Made by a program: the position numbers and the translations under genes. The notes below the pieces were generated by a model. The model saw nothing but the letters and a program-made list of their open reading frames with translations, had not been told where the DNA came from and did not search any database. From an uncultured Deefgea sp. (GTDB lineage: Bacteria; Pseudomonadota; Gammaproteobacteria; Burkholderiales; Chitinibacteraceae), in the NCBI GenBank assembly GCA_963508915.1, contig CAUOZE010000007.1, positions 55 through 64,054 of the forward strand: a stretch of 64,000 nucleotides of DNA. Direction: 5' to 3'. Positions 5,764 to 60,040 of this stretch are shown in pieces; positions within the stretch are counted from its first letter, which is position 1, and each line of letters opens with the position of its first letter.

Positions 5764-6084
5764 ATGAACAAGATTCGCAAAGGCGATGAAGTAATCGTTC
5801 TCACTGGCAAAGATAAGGGTAAGCGCGGTACCGTACTTACTTCTATTCCAGCTGAAGGTCGTGTTGTGGTTGAAGGTGTTAATATCGTTAAAAAACATCA
5901 AAAACCAAATCCAATGCGCGGCGTTCAAGGTGGTATCGTTGAGCTGACTAAATCAGTTGACGTATCTAATGTAGCTATTTTCAATGCTGCGACTGGCAAG
6001 GCTGATCGTGTTGGCTTCAAGACTCTTGAAGACGACAAGAAAGTTCGTGTGTTCAAGTCTAGTGGCGAAGTAGTTGGCGGCTAA
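5764..6084 (+). CDS. rplX: 50S ribosomal protein L24
   Basis: [20 protein letters not shown] motif. Confidence 0.99.
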
Positions 6085-6095
6085 GGAGAATCGAT

Positions 6096-6635
6096 ATGGC
6101 TCGTTTTCAAGAGATTTATGAGAACCAGATTGTTCCGAAATTAGTCGAGCAATTCGGTTACAAGTCTGTAATGCAAGTGCCACGCATCGAAAAAATCACC
6201 ATTAACATGGGTGTCGGTGAGGCAGTTGCAGATAAAAAAGTAATGGATTTCGCCGTTGGCGACATGCAGAAGATTGCCGGTCAAAAACCAGTGGTTACTA
6301 AGTCTAAAAAGTCTATTGCTGGCTTCAAGATTCGTGATAACTACCCAGTTGGCTGCAAAGTGACTCTGCGTCGTGAACGTATGTTTGAATTCCTTGATCG
6401 CCTAATCACAATCGCGCTTCCGCGTGTTCGTGACTTCCGTGGTGTTGGTGGCAAGTCCTTTGATGGACGTGGCAACTTTAACATGGGTGTGAAAGAGCAA
6501 ATTATCTTCCCGGAAATTGAGTACGATAAGATTGATGCGCTTCGTGGTATGAATATCACGATCACAACTACGGCTAAAACTGACGATGAAGCACGTGCTC
6601 TGCTCGCTGCCTTCAAATTCCCGTTTAAGACTTGA
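6096..6635 (+). CDS. rplE: 50S ribosomal protein L5
   Basis: [10 protein letters not shown]...FDGRGN...EQIIFPEI. Confidence 0.99.
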
Positions 6636-6642
6636 GGCGATC

Positions 6643-6948
6643 ATGGCAAAACTTGCACTGATTAAACGTGAGGCTAAGCGTGTTGCTACTGTTGCGAAAT
6701 TCGCAACAAAGCGCGCTCAGCTCTTGGTCGTTATTAACGATCAAAATGCGAGTGAGGAAGAACAATTCCAAGCTCGTTTGAAACTCCAGCAACTTCCACG
6801 TAACGCATCTCCAGTACGCTTGCGCAATCGCTGCGCATTGACTGGTCGTTCACGTGGGGTATACCGCAAATTCGGTCTCGGTCGCAGCAAGCTGCGTGAA
6901 CTCGCCTTCAAAGGCGAAATCCCGGGTCTGGTCAAAGCTAGCTGGTAA
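6643..6948 (+). CDS. rpsN: 30S ribosomal protein S14
   Basis: [10 protein letters not shown]...[12 protein letters not shown]; true start ATG 6643. Confidence 0.98.
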
Positions 6949-35868: not shown

Positions 35869-35998
35869 ATTTGGCCGATGTGATGCCGTGCCATATCTCA
35901 ATGAGAGATTAAATAGCGAAACGTAAACAGCGTACGTGTTGTTACGGTCTTCTTGGCGGAAAGCGTTCTTGAGTACAAAGGGCTTACAAGGGATTATC

Positions 35999-36096
35999 GA
36001 GCGGAAATGAACAAGGCCCCAACTTTCGTTGAGGCCTTGATTTTTGTGGGGTGGCTGATGGGGCTCGAACCCACGACAACAGGAATCACAATCCTG
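35999..36096. repeat. att site (distal copy): 3' half of tRNA-His plus downstream terminator
   Basis: 98-bp direct repeat of 59943-60040 with 2 mismatches; identity ends at the anticodon stem. Confidence 0.95.
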
Positions 36097-36217: not shown

Positions 36218-36261
36218 AATTTGCCTACATAGTGCCTACATGAAACTCCATGTAGGCAAAA
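36218..36261. repeat. Integrase arm-type binding sites (left)
   Basis: AATTTGCCTACATAGTGCCTACATGA plus inverted CATGTAGGCAAAA; same 26-mer at 59910-59935. Confidence 0.8.
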
Positions 36262-36276
36262 CAGGAGTAAATCCTC

Positions 36277-37587
36277 ATGGCAAAAAGCAATCGTATTTCG
36301 TTTACCGCGTCTCGCGTTGAAAAGGCCTCTTGTGAACCGGGCAAAGCGCAGTCTTTTCTTTGGGATAGTGGCGCGCCTGGTCTTGGTTTACGCATGACCC
36401 AAAACAAAGAGGGCAAAGCATACATTTTCGAGAGTCGGGTGAATAGCAAAACTCTGCGAATCACAATTGGCTCTGTGCTGTCATGGACAATTGATGCCGC
36501 CCAGGCAGAGGCGCGTCGTTTGCAGTCGTTGTGCGACCAAGGTATTGACCCTCGCCAACAAAAGTCAGATGAGAAGGCTATTGCTACTGCGCGGCGATTA
36601 GAAGAAAAGCGTAAACATATCAAATTAGGTGACGTGTGGCCTGTGTATATCGAGGAACGCCGCAGCAAATGGGGCGAATGGCATATCCGCGACCATGAAG
36701 AAATGGTTCACCTTGGTGGCGTTAAAAAAATACGTGGTCAAGGTTTGACGCAGCCGGGCGCGTTGGCTGCATTGTTGCCACTGAAGTTGTCTGAGCTAAC
36801 TGTAAAGCGCGTCGCGTCGTGGTTGGCTGCGGAAACACTCGTGCGACCGACGAAAGCGCGGTTGGCGTATCGCTTATTGTCGGTCTTTGTTAATTGGTGC
36901 GAGTCGCAAGACGAATATGCGGGCTTAATTCCGGCTGGGGTATGCAAGGCGAAGCAAGTTAAAGAAGAGTTAGCGGCAAAAAATACGAAGGATGATGATT
37001 GCTTGCAATCAGAGCAGTTACCGCGCTGGTTCGCCGCTGTGCGTGGTTTGAACAATCCAAGTGCATCAGTGTACTTGCAAGGTTTGCTGATTACGGGGGC
37101 GCGTCGTCGCGAATTAGCGGACTTACTTTGGGACGACATTAATTTTGAGTGGAACAGCCTGACCATTCGCGACAAGGTTGAAGGTGAGCGCACCATTCCA
37201 CTGACCCCGTACTTTAAGTCGCTGCTGCAAAATTTGCCTCGTCGCAATAAATGGGTTTTTTCGAGTGCATCATCGGCGTCTGGTAAGTTGGTCGAACCGA
37301 CTGGACCGCATCGTCGCGTCTTAGAGGCTGCCGAGTTGCCGCACCTATCCTTGCATGGCTTGCGCCGCTCATTTACGACCTTGGCCGAATGGGTTGAAGT
37401 GCCTGTCGGCGTGACGGCTCAAATCATGGGGCACAAGCCAACAGCCATTGCCGAGCTTCACTATAAACGCCGCAAACTCGATATCCTTCGCCGCTACCAT
37501 ATTAAAATTGAGCAGTGGATGTTGGAGCAGGCGGGGGTTGAGTTTCATTATGAGAATGTGCCACCAGCTTTGCGCTTGGTCGCATAA
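36277..37587 (+). CDS. Tyrosine recombinase/integrase with N-terminal arm-binding domain
   Basis: FLWDSGAPGLGLR arm domain; catalytic TGARRRE, HGLRR, MGH, LHY. Confidence 0.95.
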   Translation: MAKSNRISFTASRVEKASCEPGKAQSFLWDSGAPGLGLRMTQNKEGKAYIFESRVNSKTLRITIGSVLSWTIDAAQAEARRLQSLCDQGIDPRQQKSDEKAIATARRLEEKRKHIKLGDVWPVYIEERRSKWGEWHIRDHEEMVHLGGVKKIRGQGLTQPGALAALLPLKLSELTVKRVASWLAAETLVRPTKARLAYRLLSVFVNWCESQDEYAGLIPAGVCKAKQVKEELAAKNTKDDDCLQSEQLPRWFAAVRGLNNPSASVYLQGLLITGARRRELADLLWDDINFEWNSLTIRDKVEGERTIPLTPYFKSLLQNLPRRNKWVFSSASSASGKLVEPTGPHRRVLEAAELPHLSLHGLRRSFTTLAEWVEVPVGVTAQIMGHKPTAIAELHYKRRKLDILRRYHIKIEQWMLEQAGVEFHYENVPPALRLVA

Positions 37588-42959: not shown

Positions 42960-44194
42960 GTGCGCGTCAAAAATTTAAGCTTGATGAGTTAGGTACTGTT
43001 GGTAGAGGTAAGTCTAAACATCGGCCTCGTAATGACCCCAGCCTTTATGGTGGCCCATATCCATTTTTTCAAACTGGCGACGTAAAGGCTGCTGAGCTTT
43101 ATTTGCGTGAATATTCGCAAACGTATAGCGATGCTGGATTGGCACAAAGCAAATTGTGGCAGCCAGGTACGCTTTGTATCACTATTGCCGCTAATGTCGC
43201 TGATACAGCAATTTTGGCAATTCCTGGTTGCTTCCCTGATAGCGTCGTTGGGTTTATCGCAAATCCTGAAAAAGCTGATGCTCGATTTATTAAATACTAT
43301 ATCGACGTTATTAAGCGGCAGATGGTTAGCGCCTCAAAAGGCACTACGCAAGATAATTTGAGCGTAGATAAGTTACTGATGTTTGATTTTGAAGTTCCGC
43401 TGGTCTGCGAGCAAACGCATATTGCAGATATTATTTCCGCCTATGACGACCTGATTGAGAACAACACGCGGCGGATTGCGGTGTTGGAGGAAATGGCGCG
43501 GCGGATTTATGAAGAATGGTTCGTCCACTTCCGCTACCCCGGCCACGAGCAAGCCCAAAAAGTAGAAACCGAGCTAGGCTTGGTGCCGGAAGGGTGGGAG
43601 GTTAAGCAGCTTGGCGAATGTTCCGTTTATGTGAATCGGGGCATTACCCCTAAGTATGACGATGCTGCTGAGGGCTTGGTTATCAATCAAAAATGCATTC
43701 GAAATGGCAAGCTAAGTATGGCTTTTGCAAGAAGACAGTCGAAAGTACCTCCAAGCGATAAAGTGGTGCGTTATGGTGATGTATTAATTAATTCAACAGG
43801 TGTTGGTACTCTTGGACGTGTTACTCAAATTTGTGAAAATTTGAATAATGTCACGGTAGATACGCATGTCAGTATTGTTCGTCCGAGGCCTGAGCTAGAT
43901 GTAGAGTTTTTTGGATTGGCACTGCTTCGGCTGGAGCCGCACTTTGAGCAACAAGGAGTCGGAGCAACTGGTCAAACAGAGTTGAGCCGCGCCCGTATTG
44001 CGGAAACTCCGATGCTCATTCCGCCGTTTGAATTGCAGGTGCAGTTTTCGAATATGGTTTCTGCAATGCGTAAGCAGCCACTAATTCTATCCAAGAAAAA
44101 CGCTAACCTCCGCCAAACCCGCGACCTACTCTTGCCGCGCCTGATTTCGGGCGAGCTGGACGTTTCTAAGCTGGTGCTGCCGGATGTGGCTTGA
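42956..44194 (+). CDS. hsdS: Type I R-M specificity subunit
   Basis: Two TRDs with conserved [17 protein letters not shown] and [17 protein letters not shown]; ATGA overlap with hsdM. Confidence 0.96.
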
Positions 44195-44346
44195 TGGGTA
44201 TGTGGTGCTGAGTGATGGTGGTAATGGGTTGTGAGTATATACCCGTTATGACTGTTTTGCACCCTGTCGCACGCCCCGTGGCTGCGCAAGCCCACCAACT
44301 TCGCCTACGAATGCTCTGTGCGTTGCAGAGTGAACGAAGCCGAAGC

Positions 44347-44452
44347 ATGCGCGCGTTTGCCGAGTCATGGCCGCAAGAGGCAATTGTCCAGCAGGCTGTT
44401 GGACAATAATCGTGGGTGCGAAAGTTGAAAGAACCGCAGTGGCGGATGAGGG
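44347..44452 (+). pseudogene. Remnant of a DUF1016/YhcG-family gene
   Basis: MRAFAESWPQEAIVQQAVGQ* then SW..KLKEP resembles the DUF1016 MRAFAEAWP..IVQQ...QLPW motif; in-frame TAA and deletions. Confidence 0.65.
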
Positions 44453-44456
44453 CGTA

Positions 44457-44906
44457 ATGTCGAATGTGGTGTTGGAATGTGGTCAGTGCGGTAAGGCCAA
44501 TAAGGTGGAAACCCAGTTTCAGATTAGCTGTGGGTGTTGCAAAGCACCGCTGGATACGCAGGCGTTTCGCCCTTATGCCGATTATTTTGAGCAACAAAAG
44601 CCCGCTAAAAAAAGCGGTGTGAGCAAAACGACGATGTTTGTGGTGGCGACGGTGACGGCGGTGAGTGGCTTTTTTTCGGCTGAATATGTGTCGCAGCGCG
44701 CGGCGGTTTCTCCGACCGAATACCGCTTCTTGGAGGCATGTATTTTGGGCTCTGAGCCAACAAACCATGCACGTTATCAGCGCAAAGTGGCCATTTGTAC
44801 TTGTGCATTTAATCAAACGCGCGACAGCCTTGCGGCCAAGCCTGAGCTAGATTTCGTAGCGACGTTTGAGCAGACTGTTACCGCGTGCGCAGGCGCGGTG
44901 CAATAA
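44457..44906 (+). CDS. Zn-ribbon + single TM + Cys-containing C-terminal domain protein
   Basis: CGQC...CGCC, TM MFVVATVTAVSGFF, C-terminal EAC/CTC/C. Confidence 0.7.
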   Translation: MSNVVLECGQCGKANKVETQFQISCGCCKAPLDTQAFRPYADYFEQQKPAKKSGVSKTTMFVVATVTAVSGFFSAEYVSQRAAVSPTEYRFLEACILGSEPTNHARYQRKVAICTCAFNQTRDSLAAKPELDFVATFEQTVTACAGAVQ

Positions 44907-44927
44907 CCCCAGGGGTTAAGCCTGGGG
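44907..44927. terminator. GC-rich hairpin between convergent genes
   Basis: CCCCAGG-GGTTAAG-CCTGGGG; no clear U-tract. Confidence 0.4.
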
Positions 44928-44933
44928 CTGCGA

Positions 44934-45074
44934 TTACTTGGCTTGCGTGTCGCCGGAGTCTAGGCGCTCTTCGTAATCATCTGGCCGCTCATCCAAACCG
45001 CGCGACTCCCAATAGGCGTCGTTATTTGGATTGAGCTGGTTGCTATGATTGTCGTTGTCGTCTTTTTTGCTCAT
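44934..45074 (-). CDS. Small acidic protein (46 aa)
   Basis: Manual translation MSKKDDNDNHSNQLNPNNDAYWESRGLDERPDDYEERLDSGDTQAK*. Confidence 0.7.
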   Translation of the reverse strand: MSKKDDNDNHSNQLNPNNDAYWESRGLDERPDDYEERLDSGDTQAK

Positions 45075-45086
45075 GGGCCAGGCTTC

Positions 45087-45194
45087 TTATTTAGTTTTCG
45101 GTGGGTTGTTATCACGGCCACCGCCTGATGGCTCTCCTGTTTTGCTCGGCCAATTGGGCTGGTTTGATGCGGTCAATGTTTGAGTTGTGTTCAT
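45087..45194 (-). CDS. Small Gly/Pro/Asn-rich peptide (35 aa)
   Basis: Manual translation MNTTQTLTASNQPNWPSKTGEPSGGGRDNNPPKTK*; GGAG RBS 7 nt upstream. Confidence 0.6.
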   Translation of the reverse strand: MNTTQTLTASNQPNWPSKTGEPSGGGRDNNPPKTK

Positions 45195-45216
45195 GGTGAG
45201 GCTCCATTTGAGTTGA

Positions 45217-45642
45217 ATGCTGGATAAGGCTTACCCAGTGATGGAGATAATACGGAGTGGTACTGTGACAGTACGTGACAGCGAGCAGGTGATTTCCCAT
45301 TGGCCGCAATTAAGCGTCATCATTGATGAATGCGGCGGTGCGGCGGCTTTTTTGCGTGGCATCGAAGGCGATGCGCTGGATGAGTTGCTGGACAAAAGAT
45401 ATGGCTGCGCAGACGGTGATGACATGCGCATTGAAAAGCTCAATGAGAGCTTAAGGCAGTGCTTGAGCCGCTATAAACGTGGCAAGAATTTACAGGGTAA
45501 TTCGCTGGATTTAGGGCGGCAATTATTGGAAATCTGGCTGAAGAAATATCCTAGTGCAATACGTTATACCGAACATGAAGAGCTTCGGCAGATGCGAGCT
45601 ATTTCACATGAGCTTGAACGGCTGCTTGCTGGCAATGCCTAG
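45217..45642 (+). CDS. Hypothetical protein (141 aa)
   Basis: ORF between the micro-ORFs and hsdR; no motif recognised. Confidence 0.6.
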   Translation: MLDKAYPVMEIIRSGTVTVRDSEQVISHWPQLSVIIDECGGAAAFLRGIEGDALDELLDKRYGCADGDDMRIEKLNESLRQCLSRYKRGKNLQGNSLDLGRQLLEIWLKKYPSAIRYTEHEELRQMRAISHELERLLAGNA

Positions 45643-45827
45643 CGCGTTGATTGCTAGCTTGTAAGATTGATGCGACTTGGGTAGTCTTTCGTCTATGTTC
45701 AGTTAAAAAATAAGATAATTCAGCAAAAATTAGTTTTCATTAGCTGACTATTTATCCTATTCGCTGGGCGAATTGAATGGTAAGTCTTTGATAAGACTGC
45801 TATTTGTATTGGATAAAAGGACCGTCA

Positions 45828-48800
45828 GTGCCCTATAACATCGAAAAACCAACCCCACATTCCGCGCGTGACGTGTCGGCTGGCTATGGCGAGCTGAATT
45901 TAGTTGAAGCGCCTGCCATTGAATTACTTAAAAATTTGGGCTGGCAGCATGCGGATTTGTTCAAAGAAAAAATAGGGCGTTTGGGCACTGAAGGGCGCGA
46001 GAGCGAAAGCCAAGTCATTTTGCCGAACCGCTTGCGGGCGGCATTGCAGCGGCTCAATCCTGGCTTGTCGCCATTGGCGTATGAGCTGGCGTTTGACGTG
46101 TTAAATACCGACCGTTCCCGTGAGTCGGCGGTGGTGGCGAATCAAGCGATTTATGCCTTGCTGCGCGACGGCGTCAAAGTCACCGTTCCCGACGCCGATG
46201 GTATGCCGAGCTTTGAAACGCTGGTGCTGGTGGACTGGAAAAATCCCGAGAACAATGAATATTTTCTGGCGACTCAACTTTGGGTGGCGGGGGATATGTA
46301 TCGCCGTCGCTGCGATGGTGTCGGCTATATCAATGGCTTGCCGCTGGTGTTCTTAGAATTTAAAGCGCCTGGTGTACATTTAAAAGCTGCCTTTGACGAA
46401 AACCTGCGCGATTACCGGGGGCAAAGCATCCCGCAATTGTTTCACTTCAATGCGTTTATCTTGTTATCCAATGGCCGAGAAACTAAGGTCGGTACGCTCA
46501 CGTCAATGTGGGAACACTTTGCCGAATGGAAGCGGATTTCGACCGAAGAAGAGCCCGCTAAGGTGTCGCTAGAAACCGCACTGCGTGGGATGTTGCTGCC
46601 TGAGCGTTTACTCGACCTGATTGAAAACTACACTCTGTTTGAACTGGTTCGTGGTGGGCTGGTGAAGAAGGTCGCTAAAAACCATCAATTCCTTGGTGTG
46701 AATAAAGCCATCGAGGAAGTGGGCAAGCTGAACGAGAACCAAGGGAAGTTGGGCGTGTTCTGGCATACCCAAGGCAGTGGCAAGAGTTTGTCGATGGTGT
46801 TCTTTACACAGAAAATCTTGCGCAAGCGTCCTGGCGCGTGGACTTTTGTGATTGTGACGGACCGCGAAGAACTTGATACGCAAATCTATAAAACCTTTGC
46901 CAATACGGGTAGTGTGGGCGCTGAGGTTCAAGCCACTAGCGCGGCGCACCTTAAAGAGTTGTTGGCAGGTAATCAGCGCTATGTGTTCACGCTGATTCAA
47001 AAATTCCGCAGTGAGGACGGTGCAGAATATCCGCTGTTGTCGAATCGTTCCGACATCATTGTGATTACCGACGAAGCGCATCGTAGCGAGTACGGCACGT
47101 TTGCAATGAATATGCGCAAGGCGCTGCCGAATGCGGCGTTTATTGGTTTTACCGGAACGCCATTGATTGCGGGCGAAGACGAAAAAACTCGCGCCGTGTT
47201 TGGTGATTATGTTTCGGTCTATAACTTCGCCCAGGCTATTCAAGACGGTGCAACGGTGCCGCTGTATTACGAGAATCGTATCCCCGCTTTGCAACTGACT
47301 AACGAAGATTTGAATGCCGACTTGGCGAGTATTTTGGAAAATGCCGACCTCGACGAGGACCAAGAGCAAAAACTAGAGCGCGAATTTGGCCGTCAATATC
47401 ACCTGATAACTCGTAACGACCGACTTGAAACCATCGCCGCTGACATCGTTGAGCATTTCACGGGTCGTGGGTATCGCGGCAAAGCGATGATGGTGTGCAT
47501 CGACAAGGCAACCGCCATTCGCATGTACGACAAGGTGCAAGCACATTGGCAAGCGACGCTGACACGCCTAAATGCCGAGCTAAAGTCGAGTACGGGTGAA
47601 CATGCCGAGGCTATACAGGCCCGTATCACCTTGATGCTCGATACCGATATGGCCGTGGTGGTGTCGCAAGGCCAAAACGAAGTGGCCGACCTGAAAGAGA
47701 AAGGCCTGGATATTGAGCCGCATCGCCGTCGCATGATGCAGGGTGATTTGGAAGAAGAATTCAAAAGCCCGACGACCAAGCTAAAACTGGTGTTTGTTTG
47801 CGCGATGTGGATTACGGGCTTTGACGTGCCGACTTGCTCGACGCTGTATCTGGATAAGCCGATGAAGGCGCATACCTTGATGCAGGCCATCGCCCGCGCT
47901 AATCGGGTGTCTGAAGGCAAAACCAGCGGCATGATTGTCGATTACGTCGGGATTTTCCGTCACCTCAAAGACGCGCTTTCTATTTATGCCAATTCAGGCG
48001 CGGGCGGTGCGGGTTGTGATGATTCGGGCGATGATTCAGGAAATGTCCCGCTAGAGGCGAAACAACAGCTTATTAGCTTGCTTGAGCAGTCCATTACCGA
48101 CGCGGAAATGTGGTGCCAAACTCAGCAAATTAGTATCACCGACATCATTGCTGCCGAAGGATTTCACCGTGTTGGCTTAATGATGGACGCGGTCGATGCC
48201 ATCGTCGCCAGTGATGATACTAAAGCGCAGTTTATGGCGCTGGCGGGCTTTGTGGCTAAACACTACAAGGCCATTTTGCCCGATACCCGCGCTGCGGATT
48301 ACGCGCCCAAAACGGTTGCGCTGGCGTTCTTGGCACGGCAAGTCAAAGCGCTGATGCCACCCGTCGATATTAGCGAGGTGATGAATGATATTGAGGCCTT
48401 GCTCGATGATTCTATTGCCACCGATGGGTATCACATTTCCGCCAGTGGTATGGCCAAAGCTTTGGTTGATTTGTCGGAAATTGACTTTGAAGCGCTGGAT
48501 GCCGAGTTTAAAAAGAGCAAGCGTAAACACGTTACAGCCGAACAGTTGAAGGGCGCGGTCGAGCAAAAAGTGAACGAGCTGGCGGCGAAAAATCCAAGTC
48601 GTGAAGGCTTGGTCGAAAAGCTGAAAAAACTGATTGATGCGTACAACGCTGGCGATATCAACATCGAAACGTATGTCGAGGAACTCAAGCAATTTACTAA
48701 AGAGTTGAAAGCGGAAGGGTTGCGTGGTGAATCGCTAGGGCTTAGCGAAGAAGAGTTGGCCGTGTTCGACATTTTGACTCAGCCCGACCCGCCACTCACG

Positions 48801-52461: not shown

Positions 52462-53061
52462 ATGCTAGCGGATTTATTACTTGGGCAGTATCGCAGACGG
52501 GTGCTGGCACTACTGCTGCTACACCCCGACAACGCATGGCATGTGCGCGAAATAGCGCGGTTGACGCAAACGCAAGCGGGTACACTCAACCGTGAACTGG
52601 CCAAATTGGCCGACGCTGGTGTGCTACTGGTGAGCAAGGTCGGTAATCAAAAGCATTACCGCGCTAATACTGATTGCCCCGTATTTTCTGAACTGGCGGG
52701 CTTGCTGCGCAAAACGGCGGGAGTGGCCGATGTGCTGACTGCGGCTTTGGCCGAGTTGGCTGAGCGAATTGATGTTGCCTTGGTCTTTGGCTCGGTTGCG
52801 CGCGGTGAAGAGCGTGCGGGTAGTGACATCGACGTGCTGGTGCTGGGTGAGGTTAATTTTGCCGAAGTGGTGGCGGCGTTATATCCACTGCAAGAGCAGC
52901 TTGGTCGAGAAATTAATCCCGCCGTATATAGCGTGGCTGAATTTGCCGACAAAACTGTACAGCAACAAGCATGGGCGATGGACGTATTAAAACAGCCGAA
53001 GTTATTTTTGATAGGTAATGAGCATGACCTTGGAAAACTTGCTGGCAAGTCAAAAAGCTGA
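52462..53061 (+). CDS. HTH + minimal nucleotidyltransferase (MNT-type antitoxin)
   Basis: N-terminal wHTH (WHVREIARLT...LNRELAKL); FGSVARG..SDIDVLV pol-beta motif. Confidence 0.88.
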   Translation: MLADLLLGQYRRRVLALLLLHPDNAWHVREIARLTQTQAGTLNRELAKLADAGVLLVSKVGNQKHYRANTDCPVFSELAGLLRKTAGVADVLTAALAELAERIDVALVFGSVARGEERAGSDIDVLVLGEVNFAEVVAALYPLQEQLGREINPAVYSVAEFADKTVQQQAWAMDVLKQPKLFLIGNEHDLGKLAGKSKS

Positions 53062-54129: not shown

Positions 54130-55587
54130 ATGAATTATTCACCAACGTATGATATTGATTCATTTATTGGCAGGCGAGCTATGGAAACACAAGTCTATTT
54201 TTCAGGTATTCGCAAAGAAATCATCCAGCGTTTGGACAAGGCAACAGAGCGGGTTTTGGTCGCGGTGGCGTGGCTTACCGACAAGTCGCTTTTTGATGCG
54301 CTAGTTTCGTGCCAGCGCCGTGGGGTGGTCGTTTCACTTGCGGTGCTAGACGATACAATTAACCGTCAATCCTCCATTGCTTGGGAGCGCCTAACTGCCT
54401 TGGGCGGTAATCTATACTGGATACCCGAAGGAACAGACCATCATGGCTCTTTGCATCACAAGTTCTGCCTGATTGATACGCATACCGTGATGAATGGCAG
54501 CTTTAACTGGACCTACCGCGCCAGCCGTGCCGATGAAAATATGACGGTGTTTGAAGGCGACGCAGCAATAGCTCTTCGTTTCCAGCAAGAATTTGTCCGG
54601 TTACTCAGCAAATATGGCCATGGCCCCGCGCCAGTGGTTATCGATTCCGCCAAGCTCATGGCGCGGCTATCAATTATTGCTAGCTTATTAGAATTGGCCG
54701 AATTTGACGAAATTCCCCAGCACATCAACAAAATTGCCAACGCCCAAGGGCAGACTGACATTGATAGTTTAATGCAATACGTTCAGCAACAAGACTGGCA
54801 AGCGGCGCAAGAAGTTGTGCGTTGCATTTTGTCTCGGGGTACGGCTGTTACGCTTTATCTTGACCCACTCGCAGAGGCGTTGAATTGGCAAATTCGCCTT
54901 CTGGAAATGGAGATTATTGCGCTAGAAACATCGCTAGGTGAAATGCTGCGGCAAATCCACTTGTTTGATTACCAGCAGAACCAAGCTATTGGTGATTTAA
55001 CGCGTGAATATCTAGAGGTTCGTTGGCGTTACTTGGCCCAGTTACATCAAAGAAAACAGCAGCAAAAAACATATGAGGACGCTGAGGCAGCCAAAAAAAC
55101 CTTCCATGATTATCAGCAAGCGCAATCCGAGCTTGCGCACGAAGCCCAGCCCATTGCACTTGATGCAGAGCAGCAAGCGGAGCTAAAACAGCTCTACCGA
55201 AAACTGGCTATGCAGAGCCACCCAGATAGGGTGGCTGCACATCTGCAAGAGCAGGCCAAGGTCTTATTTCAGCAATTACAGGCAGCCTATCAAAATAACG
55301 ATTTAGCGGCATTGCAGCGCATCAAGCTACAAATTGAACAAGGCCTTGCCCCAGTAGAACAGGTGGCCTTATCCATTGAGCGGCTAGAGCTGCGTATGAC
55401 TGAACTGCAAAGTGTTCAAGCGCAACTTGCCCAACAAATTGGAGCGCTGAGTCAGACCTTGGTTTGGCAAACGCTAAGCACGCACACGGATTGGGCGGTA
55501 TGGTTTGCCGAGCAAGCTGAGCGACTGAGAACAGAAATCGCAAATTATCGAGCACAGCTTGAAGAGCTTGAGGCGATGCCGATATGA
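54130..55587 (+). CDS. PLD-family (single HKD) nuclease domain + coiled coil + J-domain-like protein
   Basis: VAVAWLTD, HHKFCLID..NGSFNWT..ADEN; LKQLYRKLAMQSHPDRV...AKVLFQQLQAAY; alternative start ATG 54181. Confidence 0.85.
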   Translation: MNYSPTYDIDSFIGRRAMETQVYFSGIRKEIIQRLDKATERVLVAVAWLTDKSLFDALVSCQRRGVVVSLAVLDDTINRQSSIAWERLTALGGNLYWIPEGTDHHGSLHHKFCLIDTHTVMNGSFNWTYRASRADENMTVFEGDAAIALRFQQEFVRLLSKYGHGPAPVVIDSAKLMARLSIIASLLELAEFDEIPQHINKIANAQGQTDIDSLMQYVQQQDWQAAQEVVRCILSRGTAVTLYLDPLAEALNWQIRLLEMEIIALETSLGEMLRQIHLFDYQQNQAIGDLTREYLEVRWRYLAQLHQRKQQQKTYEDAEAAKKTFHDYQQAQSELAHEAQPIALDAEQQAELKQLYRKLAMQSHPDRVAAHLQEQAKVLFQQLQAAYQNNDLAALQRIKLQIEQGLAPVEQVALSIERLELRMTELQSVQAQLAQQIGALSQTLVWQTLSTHTDWAVWFAEQAERLRTEIANYRAQLEELEAMPI

Positions 55588-58244
55588 ATCTCGTCCCTAT
55601 TGGTGCGCAACTACCTACGGCTCTCACAAGGCGTTGCGATATTGTGGCGAGCACACTCGCTACCGTTGAGCAGCAAGAAATCATGCAGTTTTTTCGTGAT
55701 TTCCCTGAGTTGTTTTATTACTGCGTGCAACGGCACTATCCACTAACGGAAGAGCAAGTAACTCGCTATCCAGACTTTTGGGATTGGTCTCTATTGAGTA
55801 AAAATAGAGACTTGATGCGGTCTTATGATTTGGTTGAGCAGCATGCTGGAAAATTAAACTTGGGCTGGTTGAGTTGGAATGGGCTTTTGCCATGGTCAGG
55901 TGATTTGATTGAGCGTTATGCTGGCCAGTGGGATTGGAGGGCGCTAAGTTGGAATGGGGAGTTGCCATGGTCGGATGACTTGATTGAGCGTTATGTTTGC
56001 CAGTGGGATTGGAGGGCGCTAAGTAGGAATGGGGCGTTACCATGGTCGGATGACTTGATTGAGCGTTATGTTTGCCAGTGGGATTGGAGGGCGCTAAGTG
56101 GGAATGAGGCATTGCCATGGTCGGTTGATTTGCTAGGGCGTTATGTTGACCGCTGGGATTGGGGTTACTTAAGTAGAAATACAGCTTTACCATGGTCGAG
56201 TGATTTGGTTGAATGTTACGCTCTTCGATGGAATTGGGAGGAGTTAAGCTTCAATCACGCATTGCCTTGGTCAATTGAAATGATTGAACATTTCTCCGCC
56301 CAATGGGATTGGGAAAATTTGAGTTTGAACCACTCCTTGCTTTGGTCGTGTGAGTTGCTTGAACGTTTTGCCGACCAATGGGATTGGATAACGATAAGCT
56401 TTAATCGCGCAGCGCCTTGGACGCTTGAGTTAACGAAGCGTTATGCGAACACGTCGAATTGGCAAGGGCGGGGCGTAAATGGTTTCCTTCCATGGTCGCC
56501 TGATTTGATTGAGCGCTATGCTGACCGATATGATTGGGAAACACTGAGTTGGCATGTTATTTTACCGTGGTCGATTGATTTAATTGAATATTATTCTGAC
56601 CGATGGGATTGGGGTTCGTTGAGTTGGAATGATGGCGTGATTTGGTCGTATGAATTAATAGAGCGCTTTTCTGACCGATGGGCTTGGCCGATTCTAAGTC
56701 AATGCCATTCTTTGCCTTGGTCGAATGAATTGATTGAGCGTTATGCCCAGCGATGGAGATGGTTGGACCTGAGTTTAAATAGTCGTTTGCCTTGGTCTAG
56801 GGCCTTGTACCGAAAATTTAGCATGAAATTTGATACTTTAGCGGTCTCGACAATTGAAGACTTTGGTATCCAGTCTTTGCTGCCCCAGCAAATCAACCAG
56901 CTATTAACTGAAAACTTAGGGCGTCAATCAAAATTCAAACCTGAAAATAATAAACCCCTCGTGCATGACCAGGTGATGGATTCGGAATTTGAATGTAGCA
57001 AGACGGCTGATGTGACGGCGCAAAATTTAAGCGCAGAATACTACTCGAAAAAAAACTTAGTTAGCGCTGACCGCGCCAATGAAATTAGTGCACAGCTAAA
57101 CAATACGAACAGCGGTATCGACCTTGAAATGATGCAGGATGGGATTGTTTTAGCTGGCTATCACATCGAAAAAGGGGCGCGTACATTTGCCGCTTATGCC
57201 GAGGCAATGATTGGCGATTTAGGCGAGGCAGTAAAACCATATCTTAAATCATGGTATATGAGTGTGAAGTACGACCCTCGCGCTGCTGGCATAGAAGGCT
57301 TGAGCAGCGCCGCCGAGGTGGAAGCCGCTGATATTGATGCCTTAGCAACTCCCGAAGACCACGAAGCAGAGCTGGCAAACGACACTTTAGATGACGTGCA
57401 CGCGGATAGCACTGATGATGTGAAGGCAAGTAGTGCGGCTCTGGGGCAAGTAAAGATTGATCTTGTAAATGCACTTTACCACCGTGATAACATTTTTTTG
57501 CATGAGCGAAAGGCTAATATCTCCCCTGAACTGAGTGACCTCGAGCAGCGCTATGAAACCACCAAAGGCAAATTTGAGCTAGATACGAAGGGGGTTCGTA
57601 ACGCTTCAGAACTTCTCCCCGCACTCTCAAAAGTAATTGGCTTGCTGATGGAACAAGGCTTGCGAAGCTTTGCCGAGGTAGTTCAAACAACTTATTCATT
57701 GCTAGTTCGTAACGGGCTTGACACAAATTTACTGGCACAAGTGAGCGACCAGCGATGGGCCGCGGCCTACAACGGGGTTGCTGAGGATTACCAAGGTACG
57801 GAAGGTCTGGATGATGTGTGGAAACAAAGTGCAAAGGCAATTATTAAATCAATGCAGTCGGTCGTGCCAGGTGCTAGCTCTTATTTAACGTCCGAACAAG
57901 AGAAAGCCATTATGCCAATTTTGGTGCGCGTGTTAGATGTTGCTTTCCGTCTTGGGTATTACAAATTCAAGGATGCAGCAAAATTCATTCTTGATGAGAT
58001 TCGAGGGGCAATTAGCGCAGAAGTGGCCGACGCGATAACACTTGACAATTTGCAAGGTGCATACATTGCAATGTCAACTAGATACGAAAACGCCGACAGT
58101 GCCGAGGAAGTTATTGCGGTCAAAAGCGTCGATGAAATCAACGCGCACACGCTAATTGACCTTCACGCGCCGACCTACGAAGCCCACGAATCAGAGCTGG
58201 CCGACAACCCTGTGGATGATGTTGTGGAAGCGGAAAGCAGATAA
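55584..58244 (+). CDS. Trp-rich 25-aa repeat protein with C-terminal helical modules
   Basis: 14 repeats of consensus WDWxxLSxNxxLPWSxxLIERYxxx; C-terminal GARTFAAYAEAMIGDLGEAVKPYLKSWY; ATGA overlap with the upstream gene. Confidence 0.85.
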   Translation: MNLVPIGAQLPTALTRRCDIVASTLATVEQQEIMQFFRDFPELFYYCVQRHYPLTEEQVTRYPDFWDWSLLSKNRDLMRSYDLVEQHAGKLNLGWLSWNGLLPWSGDLIERYAGQWDWRALSWNGELPWSDDLIERYVCQWDWRALSRNGALPWSDDLIERYVCQWDWRALSGNEALPWSVDLLGRYVDRWDWGYLSRNTALPWSSDLVECYALRWNWEELSFNHALPWSIEMIEHFSAQWDWENLSLNHSLLWSCELLERFADQWDWITISFNRAAPWTLELTKRYANTSNWQGRGVNGFLPWSPDLIERYADRYDWETLSWHVILPWSIDLIEYYSDRWDWGSLSWNDGVIWSYELIERFSDRWAWPILSQCHSLPWSNELIERYAQRWRWLDLSLNSRLPWSRALYRKFSMKFDTLAVSTIEDFGIQSLLPQQINQLLTENLGRQSKFKPENNKPLVHDQVMDSEFECSKTADVTAQNLSAEYYSKKNLVSADRANEISAQLNNTNSGIDLEMMQDGIVLAGYHIEKGARTFAAYAEAMIGDLGEAVKPYLKSWYMSVKYDPRAAGIEGLSSAAEVEAADIDALATPEDHEAELANDTLDDVHADSTDDVKASSAALGQVKIDLVNALYHRDNIFLHERKANISPELSDLEQRYETTKGKFELDTKGVRNASELLPALSKVIGLLMEQGLRSFAEVVQTTYSLLVRNGLDTNLLAQVSDQRWAAAYNGVAEDYQGTEGLDDVWKQSAKAIIKSMQSVVPGASSYLTSEQEKAIMPILVRVLDVAFRLGYYKFKDAAKFILDEIRGAISAEVADAITLDNLQGAYIAMSTRYENADSAEEVIAVKSVDEINAHTLIDLHAPTYEAHESELADNPVDDVVEAESR
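55779..56828 (+). repeat. In-frame 75-bp tandem repeat array (14 units)
   Basis: Period 75 nt (e.g. CCATGGTCGG at 55965 and 56040); units 3-5 nearly identical in DNA. Confidence 0.9.
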
Positions 58245-58900: not shown

Positions 58901-59242
58901 TTTTCTTGGGGGCTTGCTGCGCAAAACTACGGCGGGGTGGTCGATGTGTTGACTGCGGCCTTTGCTGGAGTTGGCTGTGCGAATTGATTTTTTATTCAGT
59001 AGCGCACGGTGAAGAGCGTGTTGGCAGCTACATTAACGTGCTGGTGCTGAGAGAAGTGAACTTTGCCGAAGTGATGGCTCTACATCTATTGCACATAGTT
59101 GCCGAATTCGCAGACAAAGCCACTCTGGAACAAGCATGGGCGCTGGAGGTACTAAAATAGACGAAATTGTTTTTGATAGGAGGCGAGCATGACCTTGGAA
59201 AACTTGCGGGCCATTAACAAGCTGATTCGCTCCCCCGTGTAA
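58901..59242 (+). pseudogene. Degenerate second copy of the MNT gene plus partner stub
   Basis: Aligns by eye to ~52683-53040 (GGGCTTGCTGCGCAAAAC, TTTGCCGAAGTG, ACAAGCATGGGCG, GAGCATGACCTTGGAAAACTTGC), with deletions and a CAG>TAG stop. Confidence 0.85.
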
Positions 59243-59889: not shown

Positions 59890-59935
59890 CATGTAGGCAA
59901 AAAATACTGAATTTGCCTACATAGTGCCTACATGA
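59890..59935. repeat. Integrase arm-type binding sites (right)
   Basis: CATGTAGGCAAAA plus AATTTGCCTACATAGTGCCTACATGA, identical to the left-end motifs. Confidence 0.8.
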
Positions 59936-59942
59936 GATTTTG

Positions 59943-60040
59943 GAGCGGAAATGAACAAGGCCCCAACTTTCGTTGAGGCCTTGATTTTACTGGGGTGGCT
60001 GATGGGGCTCGAACCCACGACAACAGGAATCACAATCCTG
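59943..60040. repeat. att site (tRNA-proximal copy)
   Basis: 98-bp repeat of 35999-36096. Confidence 0.95.

Follow-up and report, generated by a model that had tools for sequence, protein, structure and literature searches.

Tryptophan-rich repeats in a Deefgea genomic island encode a predicted helical solenoid, a candidate recognition module paired with a PLD/J-domain protein

What kind of protein does a long array of tryptophan-rich repeats encode in a bacterial genomic island, and does the variation among its units mean that it can change what it binds? This question is raised by a gene in a 64,000-nucleotide stretch of DNA from an uncultured Deefgea sp. (GenBank assembly GCA_963508915.1, contig CAUOZE010000007.1, positions 55 to 64,054 of the forward strand), called the window below and numbered from its first nucleotide. 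The product of this gene, here called P0001, contains a tandem array of 75-bp units, which a preliminary description of the window had taken for a repeat-shuffling receptor with a fixed scaffold and a hypervariable binding face. We find that the array is confidently predicted to fold as a helical solenoid, that by sequence it falls within a repeat family previously named only in viruses, and that its gene forms a recurrent pair with a gene for a protein that has a PLD domain and a J domain. The most likely reading, which we hold with moderate confidence, is that, in a conflict system working by means of a nuclease and recruited DnaK, the array is the half that does the recognising.

When P0001 is written in rows of 25 residues beginning at amino acid (aa) 65, 14 units fall in frame with zero insertions or deletions. 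Tandem Repeats Finder scored the 75-bp period at 267–421, and a direct-repeat search of the window returned 12 in-register copies with an exact 75-bp spacing. Tryptophan accounts for 42 of the 350 residues of the array, and the consensus of the units is [RQ]WDWxxLSxNxxLPWSx[DE]LIERYxx. The preliminary description had reported the same 14 in-frame units with an array frame that starts one codon later (55779–56828), and its consensus, WDWxxLSxNxxLPWSxxLIERYxxx, agrees with ours. It had also called units 3 to 5 almost identical in DNA; this is true of units 3 and 4, which share 72 of 75 nucleotides (96%, three bases differ), but not of unit 5, which is 85% identical to unit 3 or unit 4. Since the remaining unit pairs are 41–72% identical, what the array records is a very recent duplication of one unit and another of somewhat greater age, rather than three near-identical units. 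The repeat domain is present in a single copy in its own genome, and P0001 is the one sequence in its own 90% cluster. An antisense open reading frame (ORF) at 55681–56193 on the minus strand lies wholly within the repeat gene and is taken to be a by-product of the repeats. A scan for promoters and terminators gave no signal above shuffled expectation.

We modelled P0001 with AlphaFold2 from a 40-sequence alignment, both at full length and as aa 1–450. The predicted local distance difference test score (pLDDT) is above 90 over aa 20–445 of the full-length model, and the shorter model has a mean pLDDT of 90.6 and a predicted template modelling score (pTM) of 0.79; over the repeats pLDDT is about 90–98, and confidence is lowest in unit 10, which is also the most degenerate. 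Each unit folds in the model into two short helices of 5–6 residues, at unit positions 4–9 and 17–22, and the helix stack is capped by N-terminal helices at aa 9–61 and C-terminal helices at aa 406–449. DSSP assigns helices only, with no strand, to the model. The confident prediction for the array is thus an alpha-helical solenoid, capped at both ends and built of 14 x 25 residues, to which each unit contributes two short helices. Its repeating core would be made of W2, W4, L7, S8, N10, L13-P14-W15-S16, L19-I20 and Y23. From the helix register, W4, L7 and S8 of the first helix of each unit (helix A) would face the core and positions 5, 6 and 9 would point outward; the variable positions 11 and 12 would lie in the loop after helix A, and position 17 would also be free to vary. 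In the second helix (helix B) L19, I20 and Y23 would belong to the core, and the probably exposed positions 18, 21 and 22 are mostly conserved charges. Such a register is compatible with one more-variable face.

The solenoid of the preliminary description is therefore upheld as a prediction, in that AlphaFold2 gives a confident, all-helical repeat fold, and the two families to which it had likened the array fare otherwise. The model is all-alpha without strand and an LRR profile match is absent, which speaks against an LRR-like protein; the unit of 25 residues, against about 34, and a residue code that is not in evidence speak against a TALE-like one. Foldseek searches of the PDB with the full-length and repeat-only models gave no significant match, the best being designed armadillo proteins (E = 0.34, template modelling (TM) score ~0.1). 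Searches of the repeat protein against Pfam (E <= 0.1), NCBIfam and PADLOC found no match, and phmmer against PDB sequences found only a chance match to Csm6 (E = 0.38). Membership in the LRR, LRV, HEAT and TALE families was dropped, as there was no profile match and no significant PDB fold match.

Judged by sequence, the array is a bacterial, 25-residue, three-Trp variant of the tryptophan repeat gene family, a name used until now for proteins of entomopoxviruses, giant viruses and jumbo phages only. This family is named in genome annotations and has no known function (PMC12484599). Residues 107–275 of P0001 match the phrog_3532 profile with E = 2.5e-16, against 1.9e-102 and 5.3e-79 for members from jumbo phages; tblastn finds Listeria phage LPJP1 (1e-10) and, in Bacillus phage BpSp, a protein annotated to the "tryptophan repeat gene family" (5e-5). 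Foldseek matches to the predicted viral structures of BFVD span 1e-16 to 1e-6 and include A0A916P757 of Mythimna separata entomopoxvirus (1.8e-13), Q9YW63 (MSV029; 1.8e-6) and gp563 of Bacillus phage G (1.7e-8), as well as pithovirus, mimivirus and orpheovirus proteins. The common skeleton of the viral and bacterial units is W..[IL]S..[NQ].L..S.E[FL]IE[KR][FY].D. The viral unit has 23 residues and a single conserved Trp, whereas that of P0001 has 25 residues and three conserved Trp, since it adds "PW" before the Ser and a Trp near the unit start, and we therefore place the P0001 array in a variant subfamily. The viral members also differ in being small stand-alone paralogs in tandem gene arrays, whereas the P0001 domain has caps, is linked to further domains and has a coupled PLD/J partner. 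In Bacillus phage vB_BpuM-BpSp (BpSp) six Trp-repeat paralogs stand in a row, gp053–gp058 (43106–46369), and Listeria phage LPJP1 has five matching places; by analogy, such tandem jumbo-phage paralogs resemble poxvirus multigene families. AMV254, a member from an entomopoxvirus, has an F-box (PMC7728225), as would suit a substrate adaptor. When 1.84 billion representative proteins (clusters) were scanned with HMMER, 2,158 passed E <= 1e-3 and 1,226 passed E <= 1e-10.

The stop codon of the gene upstream of P0001 overlaps the P0001 start (ATGA), and on this sequence arrangement the two genes appear to be translationally coupled. The partner has a PLDc_2 domain at aa 31–158 (1.3e-24) and a DnaJ domain at aa 348–388 (1.1e-6) in Pfam. 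Its PLD motif is present (H109-x-K111-(x)4-D116-(x)6-G123-S124-x-N126), so that the PLD domain is probably catalytically intact in this genome, and the HPD motif of its J domain is intact. Of 49 aligned partners, 47 retain HPD, and the PLD catalytic residues HxK...GSxN are intact in about half of them, including the partner in this genome. Partners with a dead PLD domain were seen at loci L012, L026, L031, L056, L073, L097, L101, L106, L110, L122, L124 and L128 (Comamonadaceae/Rhodoferax). Against PADLOC, the partner matches only the generic PLD models DrmC, DpdK and MkoB (1e-8 to 1e-5).

The pairing of these two genes recurs widely. A degenerate DNA pattern of one unit, run on 185,579 species genomes, found at least 120 loci in Comamonadaceae, Chromatiaceae, Flavobacteriia, Chitinophagia, Sericytochromatia, Acinetobacter, Colwellia, Thorsellia and others; a single-protein search for related loci in genome contigs had found no relatives. 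Among the matches listed, 55 of 109 repeat ORFs have a PLD/J homolog within the same 8-kb block, and nearly all of these homologs are full-length, directly upstream and on the same strand. Overlapping PLD/J and repeat genes are also found around homologs P0043, P0025 and P0032. In addition, the domains occur in single chains: P0143 joins PLD, J and repeats, P0060 joins J and repeats, and P0047, P0080 and P0100 join PLD and repeats. The fusions P0060 and P0143, together with the conserved overlapping gene pair, argue that the solenoid and the J domain are coupled. Other proteins join the repeat domain to Pkinase, PIF1 helicase, the nucleotide-binding domain of Hsp70, TIR_2, DarT, HNH, RNase_T and UDG, and because it is fused to so many effector-type domains it appears to be a portable binding module. 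This sequence pattern favours the binding role that had been proposed for the array at the outset; from the architecture, the many fusions and the F-box member we infer that the solenoid is a protein-binding module. In P0013 and P0115 an Hsp70 nucleotide-binding domain is followed by Trp repeats in the place usually held by the substrate-binding domain, and these sequences suggest that the solenoid can replace the client-binding part of Hsp70.

Over the 14 units of P0001, entropy is highest at positions 1, 5, 6, 9, 11, 12, 17 and 25. The most variable positions are the same in a family-wide set of 1,554 gap-free units collected from 119 homologs, whose consensus is [RK]W[DN]WxxLSxNxxLPWSxELIE[RK][YF]xD. 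Position 9 is W, R and G in the young copies, units 3–5, through first-base codon changes. These young duplicates differ at just 3–9 codons, with nonsynonymous to synonymous codon differences of 2:1 (units 3 and 4), 7:1 (3 and 5) and 6:3 (4 and 5), and the homologs are saturated. The positions first proposed as hypervariable, 9, 11 and 12, are indeed variable, yet positions 1, 5, 6 and 17 are equally so, and the same holds family-wide. Variation at non-core sites is expected of any solenoid scaffold and is not hypervariability in itself.

The number of units is a different matter. The repeat region of 44 complete paired homologs has about 4–18 units, most commonly 12–15. The closest cassette, among the matches listed, is L116, whose partner is ~60% identical in protein sequence and whose N-terminal cap is ~62% identical to that of P0001, and it has only 4–5 units; L065 has ~9–12. 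Both are metagenome-assembled genomes, in which repeat collapse during assembly is possible. Six homologs at ~40% identity gave no colinear best unit matches, which is uninformative at such divergence. On these comparisons, unit number appears to change over evolutionary time, and this change in array length is supported by the range among paired homologs, by the short array of L116 and by the recent duplicate formed by units 3 and 4. The features of the locus are collected in Table 1.

Table 1. Coordinates of the repeat gene, its parts, its partner and the island integrase in the window.
Feature	Position	Strand	Basis
Trp-repeat protein gene (P0001, 886 aa)	55584–58244	+	ORF list and translation
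N-terminal helical cap, aa 1–64	55584–55775	+	AlphaFold2 helices 9–39, 41–51, 56–61; conserved alignment columns
14 tandem 75-bp/25-aa units, aa 65–414	55776–56825	+	Predicted alpha-solenoid; unit 10 (aa 290–314) degenerate
Units 3–5, youngest duplicates	55926–56150	+	Pairwise DNA identity
C-terminal cap helices, aa 415–450	56826–56933	+	AlphaFold2 helices 418–424, 434–449, high confidence
Helical module, aa ~491–594, common to giant polyvalent proteins	57054–57365	+	50–71% identity
Partner gene (485 aa): PLD domain, coiled coil, J domain	54130–55587	+	Pfam
Integrase	36277–37587		Island gene

P0001 continues for 472 aa after its last unit; most paired homologs have 24–106 aa there, and a long C-terminal extension is present in only 4 of 44. 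The module that begins at aa ~491 is the part that resembles giant polyvalent proteins, which have SNF2/ResIII, methylase, InPase or PBECR1 domains and belong to phages and conjugative elements. The module is covered by no Pfam model, and aa 468–611 match phrog_10089, "DarB-like antirestriction" (5e-36). AlphaFold2 confidence is moderate over the module and low downstream. Possible weaker copies of the module lie near aa 676–730 and 770–835, and the cassette homologs P0008, P0012, P0025 and P0032 have it in one or two copies.

The gene pair lies in a 24-kb island with 128-nt direct repeats (91% identical) at 35969–36096 and 59913–60040 and a perfect 26-nt repeat at 36218–36243 and 59910–59935. 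The two pairs of boundary repeats are 23.7–23.9 kb apart, their right-hand copies overlap tRNA-His, and they are likely the attachment (att) sites of the island. Besides the integrase, the island carries type I restriction-modification genes, an HD-CE/GHKL protein and a PDC-M05A nucleotidyltransferase. The repeat gene was found in none of 60 related genomes, and other family copies adjoin an AAA_15/DUF4276 pair, PglZ, an integrase-primase element or an antitoxin. A decayed second copy of the PDC-M05A helix-turn-helix/nucleotidyltransferase region lies at 58905–59220, in three pieces that are 78–86% identical in nucleotides to the intact copy at 52693–53055. The two copies, ~6.2 kb apart with the decayed one downstream, bracket a UDG-like gene, the PLD/J gene, the Trp-repeat gene and a small gene, and the bracketed genes look like a module inserted or exchanged between them. 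Upstream of hsdM (41361) there are direct repeats ~200 bp apart (40930–40993/41133–41196 and 41106–41125/41301–41320), which could be regulatory or a duplicated leader. On the mobilizable Acinetobacter lwoffii plasmid pALWED3.6 (L009), a truncated Trp-repeat gene of 303 aa (5923–6834) abuts a transposase and lies near a Fic-family gene and arsenic-resistance genes.

How might such a pair work? The fold class, the family membership, the gene pairing and the fusions are computed results; we infer the binding of a ligand, the dependence on DnaK and any role in defence. In a two-gene cassette that moves horizontally, the solenoid would be the half that recognises the target or serves as a scaffold, and the upstream protein would supply a PLD-type nuclease domain and a J domain that recruits host DnaK. 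The solenoid would bind a protein ligand, most plausibly one from an invading phage or plasmid, and this binding would, by way of the J domain and Hsp70, activate the PLD effector or cause the bound target to be remodelled; the length of the array would change by unit duplication and loss. This conflict-system reading draws support from the integrase island at tRNA-His with its defence genes, from the gene not being found in 60 relatives and from the effector fusions, and chaperone-linked sensing of phage has a precedent in bNACHT25, in which host DnaJ is involved (PMC12169576). Several results weigh against it. The catalytic residues HxK...GSxN are lost across the Comamonadaceae/Rhodoferax clade with HPD retained, and because about half of the PLD partners have lost these residues, nuclease action cannot be the general output. 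The Comamonadaceae pair is flanked by Sel1-repeat proteins, one of ~425 aa upstream (scanned in L012, L028 and L097) and one of ~850 aa downstream (scanned in L061, L068, L114 and L125), other Comamonadaceae loci have ORFs that match in size and position, and a divergent PspF-like sigma-54 activator of 378 aa adjoins the pair in L012 and L097; such a conserved operon is more what one would expect of a regulated cellular stress module than of a mobile defence gene. The clustering of arrays at 12–15 units suggests constrained size rather than free expansion. Hypervariability is not established, because the variable sites appear across the whole family to be ordinary non-core positions, and the substitution counts among units 3–5 are too few to separate from neutral change, with which they are compatible. 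Finally, PADLOC has no model that matches the repeat protein, and our literature search found no experimental work on the Trp-repeat family, no described J-domain/PLD defence system and no characterised tryptophan repeat.

The main rival explanation, which we consider rather unlikely, is that the pair forms a specialised Hsp70 co-chaperone complex whose role is cellular and not immune. The solenoid would then present endogenous clients or anchor the J protein, the PLD domain would serve mainly in dimerisation or binding, and variation at exposed sites would be neutral drift. The near invariance of HPD alongside the frequent loss of PLD catalytic residues, the Comamonadaceae synteny with Sel1-repeat proteins and the PspF-like activator, and the favoured array size all speak for it, and co-chaperones that combine a solenoid with a J domain are an established architecture, as in the TPR-containing DNAJC3 and DNAJC7. 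It sits poorly, however, with the setting of the pair here, an integrase-bounded island rich in genes for restriction and defence, with the pair not being found in any of the 60 relatives, with a PLD motif that is intact in this genome, and with repeat domains fused to TIR, DarT, HNH and similar toxic effectors. Less probable again is that the pair is a weapon of a mobile element, in which the solenoid would bind a host protein, the J domain would hijack DnaK and the DarB-like tail would point to anti-restriction or host takeover. The expansion of the family in viruses (the BpSp paralogs, the LPJP1 places, entomopoxviruses and giant viruses), the phrog_10089 match and polyvalent-protein identity of the tail, and the location of several copies on integrative elements or plasmids all agree with such a role. 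The DarB-like module is accessory, however, since only 4 of the 44 paired homologs have a long tail, the typical fusion partners (TIR, DarT, HNH, kinase) are domains typical of defence effectors, and the neighbours here are defence genes. A programmed hypervariable locus, that is, a contingency or diversity-generating system that rewrites the variable codons, is very improbable. One near-identical unit pair and the first-base changes that make position 9 differ in all three young copies might suggest it, but neither the window nor the genome contains a second copy of the array that could serve as template, the island ORFs scanned include no reverse transcriptase, most units are too diverged in DNA for frequent slippage, and the changes are not confined to adenine-templated sites; this possibility is largely refuted.

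The conflict-system reading has a broader form, which is doubtful enough that we offer it only tentatively: the Trp-repeat solenoid may be an unrecognised class of immune or conflict receptor, shared by bacteria and large DNA viruses, in which the J domain would hand an invader protein to Hsp70 and so unleash the nuclease or dismantle the target. If true, this would be a mechanism of chaperone-executed immunity. A role for Hsp70 recruitment in the conflict systems of bacteria could be tested by way of the J domain that this cassette itself encodes. The Trp-repeat family itself is large (~2,158 representative clusters) and has no model in the copy of Pfam searched, no match among solved PDB structures and no known function, so that definition of a ligand would annotate thousands of proteins at once. 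Its new-looking predicted solenoid is found on TIR, DarT, HNH, PLD, kinase, helicase and Hsp70 proteins and in poxvirus, giant-virus and jumbo-phage genomes.

Several known systems invite comparison. Like LRR proteins, the array has a period of ~25 aa, an L-S-x-N spacing that recalls LxxN, and a solenoid binding scaffold with variable exposed positions; LRR proteins, however, build a parallel beta-sheet from LxxLxLxxNxL, whereas the array is predicted to be all-helical and matches no LRR profile or PDB fold. With TALE proteins it would share two helices per unit, variable residues near the inter-helix loop and a changing unit number, but TALE units have 33–35 aa and a base-reading di-residue, whereas the units here have 25 aa, vary over seven positions and, except for units 3 and 4, are not near-identical. 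The stacked pairs of short helices are like those of LRV (24-aa), armadillo and HEAT repeats, and designed armadillo proteins were the best, non-significant, PDB match; yet Foldseek gave E >= 0.34 and a TM score of ~0.1, and the Pfam LRV, HEAT and Arm models are unmatched. At the level of the whole system, DSR2, Avs and bNACHT25 likewise join a repeat solenoid to a toxic effector, and the trigger of DSR2 is a phage protein (PMC11087589). The candidate P0001 system differs from these in that it is without a STAND/NACHT or SIR2 domain and encodes its own J domain. DNAJC3 and DNAJC7 similarly combine a client-binding solenoid with an HPD J domain, an arrangement that may be realised in one chain in P0060 and P0143 and in two coupled chains here; they differ from the system described here in their repeat family (TPR), and this system adds a PLD domain and the context of a mobile island.

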